Part shown: piece after piece, positions 31,416-46,481 of the stretch
Position numbering within the stretch: the first letter of the stretch is position 1
Layout of the letters: every line of letters begins with the position of its first letter
Source of the DNA: a virus
Reading direction: 5' to 3' (one strand)
Length of the DNA stretch: 64,000 bases
Virus genome (UHGV): UHGV-0200554
Position numbers and translations under genes: made by a program
The notes under the pieces: model-generated
What the model saw: only the letters and a program-made list of their open reading frames with translations
The model's database searches: none
Told to the model about the DNA's origin: nothing

Positions 31416-31738
31416 ATGAAGTATGGGAAATCTGTGTAGACGTAGCAGGAATCACGCTTATAGGTGCTCTGGTTATTGCTCTGGCGCTGGTAGGATACAA
31501 GATGGCACTTCTGCCTTTCCTGGAAGCATTCAGCCTGTGTCATTGCTGGCGTAGAGCATATGGACCACAACCTGTAAAAGACTGGTTCACTTTGTACCGT
31601 ATTGCACTATCTTACACGTTTGATCATTCACGCTTAAACTGCATTGAAAGCTATCATGCTGATGGTTGGTGGTGGGTAGGATTATTCAGATGGGAGGTGA
31701 CAGAGGTAACTCCGAAACGAATGCTTAAGAAAAATTGA
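31412..31738 (+). CDS. hypothetical membrane protein
   Basis: ORF track; N-terminal hydrophobic helix; last gene of plus-strand module. Confidence 0.5.
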   Translation: MNEVWEICVDVAGITLIGALVIALALVGYKMALLPFLEAFSLCHCWRRAYGPQPVKDWFTLYRIALSYTFDHSRLNCIESYHADGWWWVGLFRWEVTEVTPKRMLKKN

Positions 31739-32059
31739 TTTTAGAATTATAAAAGTTTTAGATGACAAGGGGAAATCTGTAATAGATTTTCCCTTATTTA
31801 TCAGATATTTGCAGATATTTGAAAATCATTAGAAACTTAGGTAATTAGGAGCGTACGAAAATGGATTTTTTAAAAGCATAAGCAATCATTTAGCAAATTA
31901 GCCAAATAGATTTTAGCCTATTGCTATTGTGTATGCATGTATTTGCATATGCCTTGCACATATCCCCACACACCTCTTCCCACATTCCCACACAGTTCTC
32001 GGTTGACCCGCCAATCTCCCCTCCACAACTCTCCCAGTAATTTCCTTAAGTACTCGATC

Positions 32060-32160
32060 TGTTTTTCAAAATCGAAATCGGATTCTGAAAATCTCGACAG
32101 CTTTTCTCCTCGGTTCTCGATAGGTTTTTTATTTTCGATTTTGGATTCTGGATCTCGGTC
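32060..32160. repeat. inverted repeats (AAAATCGAAAT / ATTTCGATTTT) in non-coding leader
   Basis: AAAATCGAAATCGGATTCTG and TTTTCGATTTTGGATTCTGG copies about 60 bp apart. Confidence 0.45.
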
Positions 32161-32316
32161 TGGTTCTGGCTAGGCCTGCGCCTGAGGAACGAAAGCACTT
32201 TTTTATTTTTGAAAGTGGATTTTGAATTTCTATATAGAAAAAATTTACCCCCTACCATTTTTGGTAGATAGTCACGGTACGTAATTAGCCTGCTAACTAA
32301 ATTTTAGATAGTTTCA

Positions 32317-32500
32317 TGAGTGATTATCACCGTTACTATAAATTGCCGTAACTATAAATCACCGTGCGTTACTATTTTAATTTCACCATGCAACTATAAA
32401 TCACGGGCCGTTATTATTTATATAGAAAACTATTACTAACCGTGCGTTATTACCTCAATTTGCTTAGGTTACTATTAATCACCGTAAGTAACTATTTTTT
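32317..32500. repeat. iteron-like array (CACCGT...ACTAT(A/T)AAT units, about 8 copies)
   Basis: Repeated ATCACCGT and (T/A)ACTATAAAT-like units at irregular spacing; non-coding. Confidence 0.5.
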
Positions 32501-32859
32501 AAATGATAATCATTCTCAAAATATATTGCGTGCATCCCCGGTGATTGTCTCCCGGCCCCTGGTGCCCCGGCTTGATTATATAATAACAGATCCGGCCCCC
32601 ATGTCAACAGCTTTTTTAGAAAAATATTAGTTACAACATCCTGGCGCCACCTGGCAGGGCCATCATGACCATGATCCGGTCCGGCGCTTGCGCCCTGGTC
32701 CATCCTCCGCACATTAGTTACAGCATTCCAACGACCGATCCCCGATAGTCTGCAACCTGGCGGGGCCGCCTGGTCCACTGGACCGCCTCCCCTGGTCCGG
32801 TGGGGAGTCCGGCTTGCAATTCAAAATGTGATCTGTGTCAACCTTTCACCATGTAGCTA

Positions 32860-32888
32860 TTGATCAGGTTACGGCCTAGTGTATTCTA
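32860..32888 (+). promoter_or_regulatory. promoter-like element (TTGATC-17-ATTCTA) with conserved GTATTCTATAG(G/C)TGAA start region
   Basis: Paralogous to element at 38496; followed by purine-rich leader. Confidence 0.4.
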
Positions 32889-32955
32889 TAGGTGAAGGGA
32901 AACAAAGGGGAAACGGAAAGCAAAACACCAGGCCGCAAGGCAGGAGGAAAATAAA

Positions 32956-33132
32956 ATGAAAGGCATGGTTAACAACAACAACGTAAAAGAGAGGGAAATT
33001 ATTGTTAATGGTCGTGAGATTGACAATAAACGCCGGAAAGCTATGCGTGATGCCCTGGTCAACTGGTTGGATTATGAAAAAATGATGGTAATGGCAGCGG
33101 GTGCCGCAGCTGGTGAATTTAACCACAGATAA
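32956..33132 (+). CDS. small hypothetical protein (58 aa)
   Basis: Not in ORF track; GGAGGAAAATAAAATG initiation module; hand translated. Confidence 0.45.
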   Translation: MKGMVNNNNVKEREIIVNGREIDNKRRKAMRDALVNWLDYEKMMVMAAGAAAGEFNHR

Positions 33133-33148: not shown

Positions 33149-33343
33149 GTGTTAGCTTATAATCTTCCAGGCCGTCGCCGTACGGTTGCCGACCAGGTAA
33201 CGGCAAAGGCAGACGTAACAATCAACAACGGGCAGGGCCTTTACAAGTTTAAACGGGGGAACAGCTATACGATCCAGTTTCTTAACCGTTGTGCTTTAAC
33301 ACCTGGTCAGATCAACCATTGGTTTAAAGCTAAAAAATTTTAA
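33149..33343 (+). CDS. hypothetical basic protein
   Basis: ORF track 33101..33343; possible GTG start 33149 after AGGGGGG; start uncertain. Confidence 0.35.
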   Translation: MLAYNLPGRRRTVADQVTAKADVTINNGQGLYKFKRGNSYTIQFLNRCALTPGQINHWFKAKKF

Positions 33344-33351
33344 AAAATTAG

Positions 33352-33380
33352 TTGACACCAGAAAGAAATAAAGTATTATA
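33352..33380 (+). promoter_or_regulatory. sigma70-like promoter with A-tract UP element
   Basis: AAAAAATTAGTTGACA, 17-bp spacer, ATTATA; conserved GAAAGCAGTA downstream. Confidence 0.55.
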
Positions 33381-33428
33381 GATAGTGAAAGCAGTACACA
33401 AGGTTAACAAAATATAAGGAGTAACATC

Positions 33429-35247: not shown

Positions 35248-35358
35248 ATGAACATTATCGCGGCAATCATTGTAGGCTATGCCCTCTTTTTGCTGGGCTT
35301 GCACCTGGCGGCAGTTATCAAAGGCCTGATCGATTTCTTTAAAAAAGATGAAAAATAG
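35248..35358 (+). CDS. small membrane peptide (36 aa)
   Basis: ORF track 35113..35358 trimmed to ATG 35248 with AGGAGG RBS; hydrophobic. Confidence 0.4.
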   Translation: MNIIAAIIVGYALFLLGLHLAAVIKGLIDFFKKDEK

Positions 35359-35360
35359 TG

Positions 35361-35389
35361 TTGACAGGTGAGAGAAAATAAATATACTT
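35361..35389 (+). promoter_or_regulatory. sigma70-like promoter
   Basis: TTGACA 35361-35366, 17-bp spacer, ATACTT; GAAAGCAGTA downstream. Confidence 0.5.
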
Positions 35390-35438
35390 AACCATGAAAG
35401 CAGTAAACGAGATTAATAAAACACAGGAGAAAAAGATC

Positions 35439-35933: not shown

Positions 35934-36026
35934 ATGAAAAACTATTCTCACTATTTGATCCGTCGTGATGTTATGATTATGGCCCTGGGCTACCTGGTTA
36001 TGTTTGCTTTTCGTGTAATGCTGTAA
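35934..36026 (+). CDS. small hydrophobic peptide (30 aa)
   Basis: Not in ORF track; RBS GAAGGGGGGGAA; hand translated. Confidence 0.35.
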   Translation: MKNYSHYLIRRDVMIMALGYLVMFAFRVML

Positions 36027-36044
36027 AATAAATTAAAAAATTAG

Positions 36045-36073
36045 TTGACACAGTAGCAAAAATAAGTAAACTT
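36045..36073 (+). promoter_or_regulatory. sigma70-like promoter with A-tract UP element
   Basis: AAAAAATTAGTTGACA; weak -10; GAAAGAAGTAATTAG downstream. Confidence 0.45.
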
Positions 36074-36117
36074 AAAACTGAAAGAAGTAATTAGTAAACC
36101 ACAAAGAGGAAAACATC

Positions 36118-38468: not shown

Positions 38469-38495
38469 AAATTTTTAAAAAGCTATGAAAAAGTG

Positions 38496-38526
38496 TTGAC
38501 ACGGCCCCCCGGTTTGGTATTCTATA
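38496..38526 (+). promoter_or_regulatory. sigma70-like promoter with conserved GTATTCTATAGCTGAA start region
   Basis: TTGACA 38496-38501, 17-bp spacer, ATTCTA; paralogous to 32860 element; followed by about 250-nt purine-rich leader. Confidence 0.5.
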
Positions 38527-38777
38527 GCTGAAAGGAAAAGAAAGGGAACAAGAAGGAAAGTTCCGGGAGCGGGAAAAGAAGGGTAAGGGAAAAGCCTTGA
38601 AGCATAGCTAACCGAAGGACCGAGGGAGCCGGGAGCGGCCCTAAAAGATACTCAAAGAAGTAAAAAGAAGTTGACAAGGTAACACAAAGCAGTAAAATAA
38701 AGTTGAAAGGGAAGGATGCAGGGAGCAACAAGGACCGGATAAACCGGGGGGAGCTGAAAGAAAACGAGGAAAATAAA

Positions 38778-38864
38778 ATGAAAGACTACTACAAAGCAAA
38801 CGAATATGAAAGGGTAGCAGATTTCATTAAAGAAATGTTAAAAGGTCTGAATAATAAAAAATGA
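38778..38864 (+). CDS. tiny ORF (28 aa)
   Basis: GAGGAAAATAAAATG module; hand translated; coding status uncertain. Confidence 0.3.
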   Translation: MKDYYKANEYERVADFIKEMLKGLNNKK

Positions 38865-38872
38865 GGTGGGGT

Positions 38873-38986
38873 ATGAAAAACAAGCAAGAAAGGCCCGAAG
38901 ATGACAAATTTACATGGCGTGAGCTTTTAAACATCTGGTACATCATTTACGGGCAACATTATAAACACAGAGGAGGGAGGTTATAA
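38873..38986 (+). CDS. tiny ORF (37 aa)
   Basis: RBS GAGGTGGGG; followed by GGAGGGAGG-TTATAAA-CCTCCCACC hairpin; coding status uncertain. Confidence 0.3.
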   Translation: MKNKQERPEDDKFTWRELLNIWYIIYGQHYKHRGGRL

Positions 38987-39033
38987 ACCTCCCACCACAA
39001 AGAAAGAAACAACAACCAAGCGAGGAAAATAAA

Positions 39034-45051: not shown

Positions 45052-45572
45052 AACTATAACAGGCCTAAAGAGTAAGATAAACAATAGTTTATGTGTATAA
45101 TCGGCGGGGCCTCCTGGCTGCGCTGTGTGAAACTATCATGTATGGAAACAGTCCAGGATGTTATGATTTCAGCATGGGATTGTGTGTTTTTGAATTGTGT
45201 ACGGGTAAACTGTGTGGGGTAAGTATAGGGGAAGTATAGGGGAAGTATAGGGGAAGTATAGGGGAAGTATGCCTAACAAATTTCGTTCTTTTTGTCAACA
45301 ATTTTTCTATGAAAGTGGTCCGACCAGTTATAAGATGCATCTACGGAGCATGTTATGTAGCTGGTATGGTAGTGTGCCAGTGCAATATGATGCCCGGTCA
45401 TAGCTTGTGTGGTGTACCTGTTACACCAGTAAATAGAATTAATAGCAGGCTAACTACTACAATGATTAATCTTTTAGTGCTGTAATAAACCGCAATTATT
45501 CTCCTTTCGATTGTTTTCGTTTCCTTTCGTTTCTTATCGTTTGAGCTGTGTTTTATTCCGCGTAGCGTCATG
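44959..45572. repeat. 17-bp direct repeat TTCCGCGTAGCGTCATG (2 copies: 44959-44975, 45556-45572)
   Basis: Exact copies; degenerate relatives near 44003 and 44281. Confidence 0.65.
45216..45270. repeat. tandem repeat, 11-bp unit GGGGAAGTATA, about 5 copies
   Basis: GGGGTAAGTATAGGGGAAGTATAGGGGAAGTATAGGGGAAGTATAGGGGAAGTAT. Confidence 0.85.
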
Positions 45573-45618: not shown

Positions 45619-46481
45619 CTGGCCTGCTATGCCTGCTGTGTGGTACTATTGAACTACTGTACAAATGATCATAAGTGCGTATAATCGGTGTTACGTATGA
45701 TGAACAATACGAAGTAATAATTATTCCCACATGAGAAGGCTTATCATTTACTTAAATGTTGCTGTGGAAAACTGTAACGCATGTTATTATTCAACCCCAC
45801 ACAATGAGGGCGTGAACAGTCCCCCCCTATAATCACTGTGTGCAACTATTAATCACTGTGAGTAACTACCATGCAATAACTAGGCCAATGGTCGCAAGGC
45901 CCCGGCTATCAATTGCGTAAACAGCCTCGATATTTGAGAATCATTCGCATTATGAGAAGGAGTCGCGTTTCGCCTGCCTAATACCTCAGATGTGAGTCTG
46001 GGTGTATCGGCCCCGCACTACCCCTGCTTCAGGACAGGACCTGCGGTCCGGTGACAACAACTTGTTGTGCACCATTGAGGATATTTGCCCCGGTTTGTAT
46101 GAATACCTCTTCAGGCTGTGTACCTCCCCGTAGGGGGGGTATGGTGAGAGGTAGTACGAATAAAAAAAAAATGAAGCCCTCTTCAGGCCTGTGATATTTG
46201 TGTGGCTGATATTTGTGGGGAATCCAGTATTTACGGGACTCCTGGACAGGGCGGGGAGGTATACACAAAGGAGGTATTATGTTAAAGATATGTTAAAATA
46301 TGTGGTGCTCTTTAGGCATTATTCTTCAATGAAATCAAGTGCTTAGGCTATGTGTGGGTATTTTCTGTGAATAATTGGCATGTTAATCGGATCAAAGAGG
46401 ATTAAAGAAGGGAAATGATTTGACTCTTCATGCCACTTGTGGTATATTTTCGATACTGGTAAAGGGGGTTCGGAGGTCAGG

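Follow-up and report, generated by a model that had tools for sequence, protein, structure and literature searches.

A conserved purine-rich 5' leader of a putative mobile expression cassette shared by virulent and temperate coliphages

What is the function of some 250 nucleotides of strongly purine-biased DNA between a promoter and a small gene? The question is raised by positions 38527–38777 of the virus genome UHGV-0200554, of which a stretch of 64,000 nucleotides (the window) was analysed; features lie on the + strand unless stated otherwise. An earlier note on this DNA described the region as overwhelmingly A/G, with no ORF beyond a few codons, called for its base composition to be quantified, and proposed a non-coding RNA, a translational enhancer or a protein-binding RNA. 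Counting bears out the bias. The region contains 112 A, 82 G, 34 C and 23 T, which is 77.3% purine compared with 51.9% for the whole window. Over all 250-nt windows the purine fraction has a mean of 0.519 (s.d. 0.057) and reaches its maximum of 0.776 in the one starting at 38529 (z ~4.5). The region is thus the purine maximum of the 64 kb, and everywhere else the fraction stays at or below 0.70. Other early genes here likewise have short leaders with 67–77% purine, but these measure only 23–50 nt and contain ~20% G. What is unusual in the 38.5-kb leader is its length and its G content of 33–37%.

The absence of coding capacity is likewise confirmed. The sole + strand ORF of at least 20 codons is a TTG extension (from 38703) of the real ATG gene at 38778. 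Coding on either strand is ruled out by 1–2-nt indels in close relatives, which disrupt this extension as well as both pyrimidine-rich minus-strand ORFs. Small uORFs, namely an ATG at 38716 and the AUG-containing stretches of temperate forms, are not conserved.

Transcription of the region is predicted to begin at two sites. Promoter P1 (38496–38523, TTGACA-16-TATTCT) matches the consensus at 10 of 12 positions with a TG upstream, is preceded by an A/T-rich UP-like tract (38470–38495) and is nearly invariant among the relatives. From its predicted start at ~38530 the long purine-rich 5' leader extends to 38777 (248 nt, 78% purine, 33% G, 13% C, 16 GGA). An internal promoter, P2 (38671–38698, TTGACA-16-TAAAAT, 11/12 match, predicted start ~38705), is invariant in 5 relatives and sits in a 56-nt segment that is missing from one related locus, L041, and from the temperate phages. 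Both are, by prediction, strong and near-consensus sigma-70 promoters. Because P2 lies inside the P1 leader, nested leaders of ~248 and ~73 nt are predicted, both running into a 28-codon ORF. Of the single leader of ~250 nt that had been proposed, the long P1 form therefore stands, while P2 adds the shorter one. The earlier note had overlooked P2, the membership of the small conserved ORF in a mobile cassette, and the existence of temperate-phage homologues. Promoters for a T7-like single-subunit RNA polymerase, an idea that comes from the sequence CTATAG followed by purines, were rejected, as the sites are good sigma-70 promoters and no RNA polymerase is among the products of the large ORFs, which are a primase-helicase and a family A DNA polymerase.

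A paralogous promoter and leader are found at 32861–32955 (TTGATC-16-TATTCT), leading into a 58-codon ORF (32956–33132). The shorter purine-rich leader previously reported behind this promoter, placed at 32860, is indeed present. It measures 63 nt (32893–32955), is 81% purine and contains 5 GGA and a hairpin, GCC-GCAA-GGC. The two loci have in common a 19-nt -10/start-site motif (GTATTCTATAGCTGAAAGG, 38517–38535 and 32881–32899), which as GTATTCTATAGSTGAARGG occurs only at 38517 and 32881 in the 64 kb, with 0.06 matches expected by chance. A search with nhmmer gave no homology between the 32.9-kb leader and the core of the 38.5-kb leader; what the two share is limited to their composition and the promoter/start motif.

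At its 3' end the long leader contains a Shine–Dalgarno (SD) sequence, GAGGA (38766–38770, with a GGA inside), which is followed by the ATG at 38778 (38766–38780 in all); further copies of this SD block are at 32940, 38139 and 39018. The conserved 28-codon ORF that starts here (MKDYYKANEYERVADFIKEMLKGLNNKK, 38778–38864) has counterparts in mEp021-group phages with 64–68% identical peptides, and synonymous changes are present between them. The next small ORF (38873–38986, 37 aa, phrog_16356) starts with an ATG 8 nt past the stop of the preceding 28-codon ORF. The 28-aa peptide itself matched neither a Pfam nor a PHROG family, and its neighbours gave no Pfam family and no PHROG of known function. 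The stop-to-start gap is 8–13 nt in 21 of 31 loci and 67–68 nt in one temperate subgroup. In the relatives the small ORF precedes at least four unrelated gene families, usually with a gap of 12–13 nt. In L041 the 28-codon ORF is missing, the leader stands ahead of a different ORF of 60 aa, and the SD is GAGGU, an exception to the GGA-bearing SD. Comparison of the loci shows, at the level of sequence, that the stretch is non-coding and forms the 5' leader of an expression cassette, small and mobile by horizontal transfer, with the predicted layout of promoter, purine-rich leader, 28-codon ORF and a gene 8–13 nt past the stop of that ORF.

Homologues of the leader are found in six rV5-like contigs and in temperate coliphages and prophages of the mEp021 group, which are not related to the rV5-like phages; they stand ahead of unrelated genes, and the leader continues into a gene in all of these relatives. 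With its own promoter and in the opposite orientation, the module separates the tape-measure from the tail-assembly genes in the mEp021-group phages, and its cargo varies (a lipoprotein, secreted proteins or a membrane peptide). Most temperate relatives carry a short form of 76 nt. The upstream module, which holds four hairpins and a single-stranded core in the order Hb-Ha-H0-core-H1, is an optional unit of 110–140 nt that all rV5-like forms carry, as do a minority of the temperate ones (3 of 29 IMG/VR loci, UMNK88 and the metagenome locus L050); its core is conserved across clades. Outside these two phage groups, scans of genome contigs, a scan with the H2 hairpin pattern and half of the metagenome matches gave chance matches only. 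The element is not mentioned in the mEp021-group genome paper (PMC11893012). No Rfam family was matched by the whole window at the gathering score or by three sub-ranges at E up to 10; the only near match, which is non-significant, is the dnaX frameshift site over UGCAGGGAGCAAC. A tRNA and tmRNA search found nothing. By these comparisons the leader is a conserved RNA whose family is absent from Rfam.

The purine bias is kept as the sequence drifts. Long forms are 75.7–77.3% purine and short forms 79–83%, in nearly every locus tested the purine content peaks in the leader, and 27 of the 48 variable columns hold purine-to-purine changes. Outside the core the leader has diverged by 4–10%, in comparison with 19–20% at third codon positions, and since this is 2–5 times less it is not neutral. 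The same figures argue against a neutral low-complexity tract, which, along with a role at the DNA level as an R-loop primer transcript for a replication origin, we consider hardly credible. Purine-rich RNA on a pyrimidine-rich template favours stable RNA–DNA hybrids, and just such an arrangement would arise here downstream of a strong promoter. However, the cumulative GC skew rises smoothly through 38.5 kb, with no inflection there, and turns only near 47 kb, and iteron-like repeats, suited to an origin, are found at 32.1–32.5 kb instead; an origin at this site was rejected on these two grounds. In addition, the same element is an add-on cassette between tail genes in temperate phages, and its compensatory changes and G-U pairs are specific to RNA.

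The conserved elements of the leader are five short hairpins and a core. Hairpin Hb (38545–38564) pairs GGAAC with GUUCC around the loop AAGAAGGAAA and is 100% paired among the relatives, with a G-C pair replaced by A-U in L009 and L053. Hairpin Ha (38580–38599) has an AAGGU-type 5' arm, an (R)ACUU 3' arm and a GGA-containing loop, and is 96–97% paired; it shows one-sided changes only, and its register in the window is slightly shifted (38584–88 with 38595–99). Hairpin H0 (38601–38609, AGC-AUA-GCU) consists of a 3-bp stem and a variable 3-nt loop, with a switch between A-U and G-C in both phage clades. It is followed by the conserved single-stranded core AACCGAAGGACCGA (38610–38623), the GGA of which is invariant in 10 of 10 long forms. 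Hairpin H1 (38624–38642, GGG-A-GCCG [GGAG] CGGC-CCU) contains a bulged A and a GGAG loop. Compensatory changes occur at 3–4 of its pairs, its outer G-U pair is invariant, and its loop is CGAAAA, lacking GGA, in L041 and the temperate phages. Finally, hairpin H2 (38735–38747, CCGG-AUAAA-CCGG) keeps its stem in every member, and its loop varies (AUUAA, AUGAA, GUUAA, ACAAA and AUGUC among the relatives). Across the 10 long forms 19 pairs are 97.8% paired and 5 of them show compensatory change, a result reached by none of 500 shuffles. In the 6 rV5-like forms 24 pairs in 5 helices are 98.6% paired, compared with 21–56% in slid controls. All five hairpins are, by this covariation analysis, predicted structures kept by compensatory changes. 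Because some pairs are G-U in every sequence, which fits the + strand only, the + strand RNA is the conserved entity. The purine-rich untranslated leader behind a conserved promoter was correctly recognized, and selection acts on its RNA.

The fold as a whole is different in character. Its stability does not exceed that of dinucleotide shuffles (z -0.4 and -0.8), so that the leader is not a compact structured RNA and the support extends to the local hairpins alone. The predicted minimum free energy is -0.10 to -0.17 kcal/mol per nt, and the predicted mean unpaired probability is 0.66–0.72, compared with 0.44 for CsrB. Antiterminator RNA of the boxB/nut-like or put-like type was set aside: the stems are too short, boxA is absent and the element is also found in a virulent phage.

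The first suggestion, a discrete non-coding RNA, finds no support, because no terminator-like site was found between 38530 and the ORF and the leader is continuous with the gene in every relative. In a variant of this suggestion the P1-proximal 140 nt would be processed into a stable 5'-UTR-derived sRNA that acts by base pairing or through another protein (Hfq, on A-R-N repeats). The upstream module is an optional 110–140-nt unit with a core conserved across clades, P2 directly follows it, and an (ARN)5 run in the leader falls in the top 5% of windows, all of which would suit an sRNA. Against this, the region has neither a terminator nor an obvious processing site, shuffled sequences fold just as stably (z -0.8), a 3' end of the Hfq type is missing, and an RNA made only of purines would pair only with pyrimidine-rich targets, none of which was identified. 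We regard such an sRNA as very unlikely.

The remaining suggestions, a translational enhancer and a protein-binding RNA, are two live options between which the sequence does not decide. The second can be made specific by a GGA density equal to that of CsrB, a GGA in the SD and local CsrB-like units, which together point to CsrA as a candidate partner. The leader has 16 GGA in 256 nt (6.2 per 100 nt), compared with 22 in 369 nt (6.0) for E. coli CsrB; the density is 5.8–6.4 per 100 nt in long forms and 8–10 in short forms. Thirteen of the 16 are predicted to be accessible. Some lie in the loops of Hb, Ha and H1 and in the GC-AGGGA-GC unit of the window clade, and most lie in single-stranded linkers. 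With the SD GGA and 15 further GGA upstream, the leader has the arrangement of the pgaA/glgC type, in which at least two sites are present and one is in the SD. The motif A.GGA occurs 10 times, with 5.3 expected. Composition alone, however, gives ~12 of the 16 GGA (z only 1.2–1.9). Nor are GGA positions specifically conserved: within the clade 31% are kept, compared with 32% for other purine trinucleotides, and across clades 19% compared with 9% (p = 0.2), which does not indicate purifying selection specific to GGA. L026 has no GGA in H2.

Similarity to CsrB itself is local. An unbiased CsrB scan of the window (3196 windows on both strands, mean score 16.5, s.d. 2.5) gave the 38.5-kb and 32.9-kb leaders as the top two, with scores of 33 and 32, which at most 1 in 3000 dinucleotide shuffles reach; control E. 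coli queries have top scores of 30–32 elsewhere in the window, only slightly lower. The best match (to CsrB nt 283–305) is a CsrB-like unit, AAGGAUG-CAGGGAGCAACAA (38712–38731), which forms the mini-hairpin GC-AGGGA-GC, and the second-best (to CsrB 256–277) falls in the 32.9-kb leader. With CsrC as the query the leader is not ranked first in the window, and the temperate leaders have no significant likeness to CsrB apart from composition. The 13-mer common to the leader and CsrB also occurs in the dnaX frameshift site. The Csr/Rsm models of Rfam (RF00018 and relatives) give no match even at E up to 10, which leaves local similarity over ~20 nt. The window encodes no homologue of CsrA or Hfq. 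Literature searches for CsrA-engaging phage leaders or sponges, and for purine-rich leaders in phages, turned up nothing relevant.

These likenesses raise the idea of a role in trans, in which abundant early transcripts with 8–16 exposed GGA would soak up CsrA as a phage-made CsrB mimic, so reprogramming host Csr metabolism or relieving CsrA repression of phage mRNAs, the SDs of which contain GGA; the ORF would then be secondary. The GGA density at or above that of CsrB, the strong consensus-like promoters, and the pairing of two leaders behind paralogous promoters with ~20-nt near-identity to adjacent parts of CsrB (256–277 and 283–305) are consistent with such a role, and the 5' UTR of the Salmonella fim mRNA is reportedly a CsrA sponge. 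However, a terminator of its own, an Rfam Csr/Rsm match and GGA-specific conservation are all missing, the CsrB scores are only slightly above the control maxima, and the temperate versions are short, stand behind a single prophage promoter and resemble CsrB in composition only. Glycolysis falls when CsrA is sequestered, and a lytic phage would not obviously benefit from that. A mimic of this kind seems improbable to us. A more elaborate version, in which the leaders are phage-borne CsrB mimics built into mRNAs and mobile between virulent rV5-like and temperate mEp021-group phages, is also unlikely. As infection begins, or in the lysogen, they would capture CsrA, gate their own cassette while rewiring host Csr metabolism, and the two copies would have descended from, or converged on, adjacent host CsrB units.

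The enhancer option can be stated without CsrA. The leader would be a ribosome landing pad and insulator, a long and nearly structure-free standby site, rich in SD-like sequences, that raises the local 30S concentration and frees cargo expression from sequence context. The small ORF would be a natural bicistronic coupler, the C-poor RNA would be shielded from Rho, and the hairpins would be spacers or nuclease barriers. In E. coli, translation is raised and insulated by bicistronic designs and by standby sites of single-stranded RNA; the leader of rpsA has no canonical SD and uses hairpin loops that carry GGA. In keeping with this reading, purine content stays constant despite sequence drift, predicted structure is low, with a single-stranded tract predicted upstream of the SD as expected of a standby leader, and SD-like 4-mers reach the window maximum (25 per 250 nt; mean 8.3, s.d. 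4.1). C minus G is -0.16 per 80 nt, in the 5th percentile of the window. The short leaders of the other early genes share the purine bias, the stop-to-start distance is mostly constant at 12–13 nt in front of variable cargo, and the leader is reused before a different ORF in L041. A passive spacer, however, requires neither hairpins with compensatory changes nor a core of invariant sequence. The 76-nt form suffices in most temperate relatives, and the upstream 175 nt are bypassed by P2. There is no enrichment of AGGAG and GGAGG, the strong SD cores, which are absent from the leader; its SD-like 5-mers are all AAGGA or TAAGG. With 10% U and 32–37% G the leader does not have the composition of an A/U-rich S1-binding enhancer, and its G content of 33–37% is far above that of the ordinary leaders of the phage and is not required by an A-rich enhancer. 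We hold a CsrA-independent landing pad, which comes close behind the reading placed first below, to be possible and yet doubtful.

Comparison with known enhancers divides along the same lines. The T7 gene 10 leader, A/U-rich S1 enhancers, the rpsA leader and synthetic BCD cassettes similarly place an unstructured tract upstream of a strong SD, and bicistronic couplers similarly have a short leading ORF whose stop lies 8–13 nt before the next start, with unrelated genes downstream. In contrast to enhancer and standby leaders, the element is G/A-rich and not A/U-rich (U only 10%), extends over 250 nt and has conserved hairpins and an invariant core; and, unlike in BCD-type couplers, the leading ORF is itself conserved as a peptide.

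The reading we tentatively place first, with confidence well short of even, is that of a portable cis-acting leader for translation control that is read by CsrA. Its two parts are graded separately: the leader probably sets the translation level of small add-on gene cassettes, and it possibly does so through the host regulator CsrA. Under this mechanism the leader would serve in cis as a translation-control platform, its composition of 77% purine and 13% C keeping the ribosome-binding region unpaired whatever gene comes next. With little C-rich RNA for the loading of Rho, a long untranslated RNA would be tolerable. Exposed GGA in hairpin loops, in linkers and in the SD would be docking sites for host CsrA, the dimers of which could bridge an upstream site and the SD, and translation of the small ORF and of the coupled downstream gene would thereby be tied to the state of the host Csr system. 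P1 transcripts carry ~8 more sites than those from P2, and we propose that the two mRNAs differ in CsrA sensitivity. Some titration of CsrA in trans may follow as a by-product, since the RNA is expected in quantity from strong early promoters. The involvement of CsrA leaves unexplained the conserved stems with variable loops (H0 and H2) and the invariant core AACCGAAGGAMCGA, and the reason for a virulent phage to place an early gene under CsrA repression is not obvious.

The closest parallels to a CsrA-read leader are host mRNAs. The pgaA leader of E. coli, of ~234 nt, has six CsrA sites, and glgC and cstA are also repressed by CsrA. As in these leaders, a long 5' UTR contains several GGA, some in small hairpin loops and one in the SD, at a spacing compatible with bridging by a dimer. 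It differs from them in having no sequence homology, in being far more purine-rich with more sites per length, in that CsrA is a candidate binder, and in being phage-borne, portable between virulent and temperate phages and equipped with a nested internal promoter. With CsrB/CsrC and the Salmonella fim 5' UTR it shares ~6 GGA per 100 nt and GC-AGGRA-GC mini-hairpin units, and with CsrB the ~20-nt stretches nearly identical to nt 256–277 and 283–305. Unlike CsrB/CsrC, it is not an independent, terminated sRNA, matches no Rfam model and runs into coding genes; compared with CsrB it is also richer in purine (77% vs 64%) and less structured (unpaired probability 0.66 vs 0.44). In its genomic setting the cassette resembles prophage 'morons', as in the mEp021-group phages it has its own promoter, variable cargo and a slot among the tail genes. 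It departs from them in that the conserved, exchangeable part is the 5' head of the cassette (leader and small ORF), and in that the same head also serves an early gene of a virulent 140-kb phage.

Should a CsrA-read translation-control leader prove right, the element would represent a new family of cis-regulatory RNAs, exchanged between coliphages of virulent and temperate lifestyle as the 'head' of small gene cassettes. It would amount to a ready-made expression leader of natural origin, behind which unrelated genes can be plugged in. The way in which phages shield add-on genes from Rho and from the influence of sequence context would be illustrated and, with CsrA as the reader, so would the way in which such genes are connected to a global host regulator. 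Such a leader could serve as a part in synthetic biology. The element is short and well delimited and comes in natural long, short and promoter-split variants, so that the hypotheses are directly testable by gel shifts and reporter fusions.

A minor likeness concerns H2, the loop and 3' arm of which (GGAUAAACCG) resemble the type I-E CRISPR repeat of E. coli at its 3' end. As the H2 loop varies among the relatives, this likeness is taken as coincidence.

The + strand leader at 38530-38777 is a real and non-trivial feature. The base counts over 38527-38777 are A112, G82, C34 and T23, which corresponds to 77.3% purine compared with 51.9% for the entire window. A 250-nt scan of the window gives a mean purine fraction of 0.519 (s.d. 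0.057) with a sole maximum of 0.776 starting at 38529, and values above 0.70 occur nowhere except the leader region. These figures quantify the stretch dominated by A and G that the earlier note described after the promoter at 38496. Its further claim, that no ORF of more than a few codons precedes the next small gene, also stands. The sole + strand ORF of at least 20 codons touching the region is the real gene extended 5′ to a TTG start; the gene itself begins at ATG 38778, preceded by GAGGAAAAUAAAAUG, and has a product of 28 residues. Pyrimidine-rich ORFs of 69 and 52 codons cross the leader on the minus strand; these were rejected as genes, being mechanical artefacts of composition. Indels of 1 and 2 nt in close relatives interrupt both of them and the TTG extension. 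The other early leaders of this phage are 67-77% purine too, yet they are 23-50 nt long with ~20% G. It is the length and the G content (33-37%) of this leader that are exceptional.

The promoter P1 (38496-38523, + strand) consists of TTGACA, a 16-nt spacer and TATTCT, with a TG upstream. Within the window GTATTCTATAGSTGAARGG matches at 38517 and 32881 only, where 0.06 matches are expected by chance. Downstream of 32881 lies a leader of 63 nt and 81% purine, the shorter leader that had been noticed after the paralogous promoter. A second, near-consensus promoter, P2 (38671-38698, + strand, TTGACA-16-TAAAAT), is found inside the leader, so that nested leaders of ~248 nt (from P1) and ~73 nt (from P2) are predicted. 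The initial picture of one leader after a conserved promoter is thus retained for the promoter and the leader and replaced by a nested arrangement. The nesting is read from promoter consensus and conservation only, and the transcription starts are putative. The 56-nt segment bearing P2 is extra in the window clade and is invariant in 5 relatives, while its flanks are ~10% different. The surrounding 33-45 kb forms a series of tiny genes, each preceded by an A-tract, a TTGACAC promoter and a TGAAAG start region. These early promoters (33331-33396, 35340-35405, 36024-36089 and others) have in common an A-tract UP-like element, TTGACAC and a TGAAAG(C/A)AGTA start region, and are a phage-specific promoter family. 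Directly 5′ of the paralogous promoter at 32861, the region 32600-32860 is unlike its surroundings, being GC-rich (55%) with repeated CCTGG/CCTGGTCC motifs.

The window contains genes for rIIA, rIIB, a primase-helicase, a family A DNA polymerase, NrdD and HNH endonucleases, and its polymerase shares 74% identity with the polymerases of rV5-like (Vequintavirinae) coliphages. At the DNA level 30-46 kb matches isolated phages in short patches only. One of these very few matches, 31735-31875, is 83-84% identical to several rV5-like phages at sites that carry no annotation there, and may be a conserved non-coding element. Exact-pattern and peptide-guided scans for relatives located this leader in six large contigs (uncultured, 130-141 kb), namely L001/L010/L052, L003/L009, L048, L053, L041 and the window itself, and, unexpectedly, in temperate coliphages of the mEp021 group and their E. 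coli prophages. This group comprises the ‘mEpimmI’ phages, which are reported to be Nus-dependent and non-lambdoid (PMC11893012). Matches of the temperate type come from 6 INPHARED phage records, 6 of 5426 complete E. coli genomes and 29 IMG/VR loci. The temperate module is positioned between the tape-measure gene and the DUF6246/tail-tube gene, in reverse orientation to both. Its promoter is followed by a purine-rich leader and then by an ORF of 27-29 codons that carries no annotation (e.g. MKNYYRPNEHEHYADFIEEMLKALKNKK) and whose peptide is 64-68% identical to that of the window, with many synonymous differences. The ORF (MKN(V)NYRPNEHERYADFIEEMLKALKNK...) is present in MH706966.1 (37486-37569) and in E. 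coli prophages L005-L008; it is unannotated in mEp021 and in RefSeq E. coli genomes, and is shorter than usual gene callers accept. In all mEp021-group loci (~1445-1500 in L004, which is mEp021, MH706966) a perfect, operator-like 13-nt inverted repeat, TTTATACAAAATG, ~20 nt, CATTTTGTATAAA, brackets the cassette promoter.

Across the loci, the genes found next after the small ORF represent four or more unrelated families: a membrane peptide of 35 aa, secreted proteins of 116-165 aa, a TagO-like lipoprotein of 219 aa and a 36-37 aa protein of rV5-like phages. The distance from the small-ORF stop to the next gene start is fixed at 8-13 nt in most loci. The L041 contig (136 kb, with the same early-promoter type) carries a long leader ahead of a different, 60-codon ORF and lacks the 28-codon ORF, so the leader is a portable unit rather than an appendage of one gene.

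Temperate leaders come in two sizes, a short form of ~76 nt and a long one of ~173 nt, the latter (in L012, L018, L024/UMNK88 and L050) aligning with the window P1 leader. Purine content is 75.7-77.3% in all ten distinct long forms and 79-83% in short forms. With the exception of L040, where it lies on the other strand, the purine maximum of all tested loci falls in the leader, and 27 of the 48 variable columns in the rV5-like clade are purine-to-purine changes. Comparison of the window with L009 or L010 gives a divergence of 19-20% at third codon positions, 11% in other intergenic DNA, 4-10% in the 5′ part of the leader, 15-17% in the core (much of it compensatory), 3-5% in P2 and 8% in the 3′ part.

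Although the whole-RNA fold is no better than that of shuffles (z -0.4 and -0.8), five short + strand hairpins are conserved: Hb (38545-49/38560-64), Ha (~38580-99), H0 (38601-09), H1 (38624-42, with a GGAG loop) and H2 (38735-47, CCGG-AUAAA-CCGG). Across ten long forms their 19 pairs are 97.8% paired, 5 with compensatory changes, a level matched by 0 of 500 shuffles and compared with 25-58% in slid controls. Six rV5-like forms give 24 pairs, 98.6% paired and 5 compensatory. H0 has changed between A-U and G-C separately in the two clades, and one H1 position is seen as C-G, G-C, G-U and U-G. Several pairs are G-U in all sequences and on the opposite strand would read as A-C mismatches, so the conserved entity is the + strand RNA; a DNA-level or neutral explanation is scarcely credible. 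The core AACCGAAGGAMCGA, situated between H0 and H1, is near-invariant in both phage groups and single-copy in the window; the 32.9-kb leader has no homology to it. The comparisons show a non-coding leader, conserved at the RNA level and constrained in composition.

No Rfam family matches the leader and literature searches found no published description of it. The closest systems are CsrA-repressed leaders (pgaA, glgC), the CsrB/CsrC and mRNA-leader sponges, standby/enhancer leaders with bicistronic couplers, and prophage add-on gene cassettes. Judged from sequence, the leader can be classed as a new RNA family within a known general kind, being a predicted cis-regulatory 5′ leader. The facts that need explanation are its fixed extreme purine content over a long untranslated RNA, low C (13%), largely unpaired state (mean predicted unpaired probability 0.66-0.72), small conserved hairpins, GGA/AGG density and reuse in front of unrelated genes. 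On established principles, a purine-only leader is unable to sequester a ribosome-binding site, whichever gene lies downstream, and G-rich, C-poor RNA is a poor Rho loading site. C minus G of the leader is -0.16 per 80 nt (5th percentile). Together these two properties would explain why the leader is portable and why 250 untranslated nt are tolerated. We infer Rho resistance, translational coupling, and CsrA or ribosome binding.

The tentatively preferred reading is a portable leader that controls translation in cis and is read by CsrA. Long forms carry 5.8-6.4 GGA per 100 nt and short forms 8-10 (6.0 measured for E. coli CsrB). Of the 16 GGA, 13 are predicted to be accessible and one is in the SD (GAGGA, 38766-70); the Hb, Ha and H1 loops contain GGA, and A.GGA has a count of 10 where 5.3 are expected. 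The leader lacks both strong SD cores, AGGAG and GGAGG, and its SD-like 5-mers are all AAGGA or TAAGG. GGRAGC is strongly over-represented (5 observed, 0.5 expected) and in two places forms mini-hairpins, CCG-GGAG-CGG or GC-AGGGA-GC. An unbiased local-alignment scan with CsrB (3196 overlapping 120-nt windows, both strands) places leader 38712-31 first (CsrB 283-305, score 33) and 32930-50 of the 32.9-kb leader second (CsrB 256-277, score 32), the two CsrB segments being adjacent. The background mean is 16.5 (s.d. 2.5), the next-best score is 28, and at most 1 in 3000 dinucleotide shuffles reach 33/32.

The CsrA reading is nevertheless held loosely, since composition alone gives ~12 of the 16 GGA (z 1.2-1.9), GGA positions are conserved no more than other purine trinucleotides, individual sites are absent in some members, control E. 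coli queries score up to 30-32 at other places in the window, and the 13-mer UGCAGGGAGCAAC (38717-38729) is common to CsrB nt 290-303 and the SD-like stimulator of the dnaX -1 frameshift site. The dnaX frameshift model (Rfam RF00382) gives no significant match to the leader (E = 1.4). With CsrC as query the leader does not rank first, and the CsrB likeness of temperate leaders does not go beyond composition. Next, and a little less probable, is a CsrA-independent standby and insulator leader. Landing-pad and CsrA readings alike leave the free-loop stems (H0, H2) and the invariant core unaccounted for. A trans-acting CsrA sponge as the main role is improbable. Two defining features of the CsrB family, an own terminator and a covariance-model match, are missing. 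The leader has the sequence-level features of CsrA-regulated leaders. A processed sRNA is more doubtful again. Were the CsrA-mimic reading true, the interest of the leader would be considerably greater.

Other elements of the region were observed. A hairpin, GGGAGG-UUAUAAA-CCUCCC (38975-38993), spans the stop codon of a 37-codon ORF; it is kept in the relatives L001 and L003 and has no U tract after it. The 24-nt conserved motif TAAGYTGCCTTTTAGATGGCCCCC occurs five times between small early genes (33828, 36479, 36920, 39529 and 40435), often overlapping GGCCCC hairpins, and may be a terminator, processing site or protein-binding site. Iteron-like direct repeats lie at 32062-32230 and 32348-32498, with a further copy at 45842-45872. 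The 31-nt repeat GTAACTATAAATCACCGTGCGTTACTATTTT has four copies spaced 36-42 nt and a fifth 13 kb off, with three 32-nt T-rich repeats directly upstream; this array could be an origin or operator array. GC and purine skew track the direction of transcription, turning only near 47 kb. Finally, an 11-nt tandem repeat, GTATAGGGGAA, is present in about five copies at 45212-45270, near the lowest-GC 200 nt of the window (44437, 21% GC).
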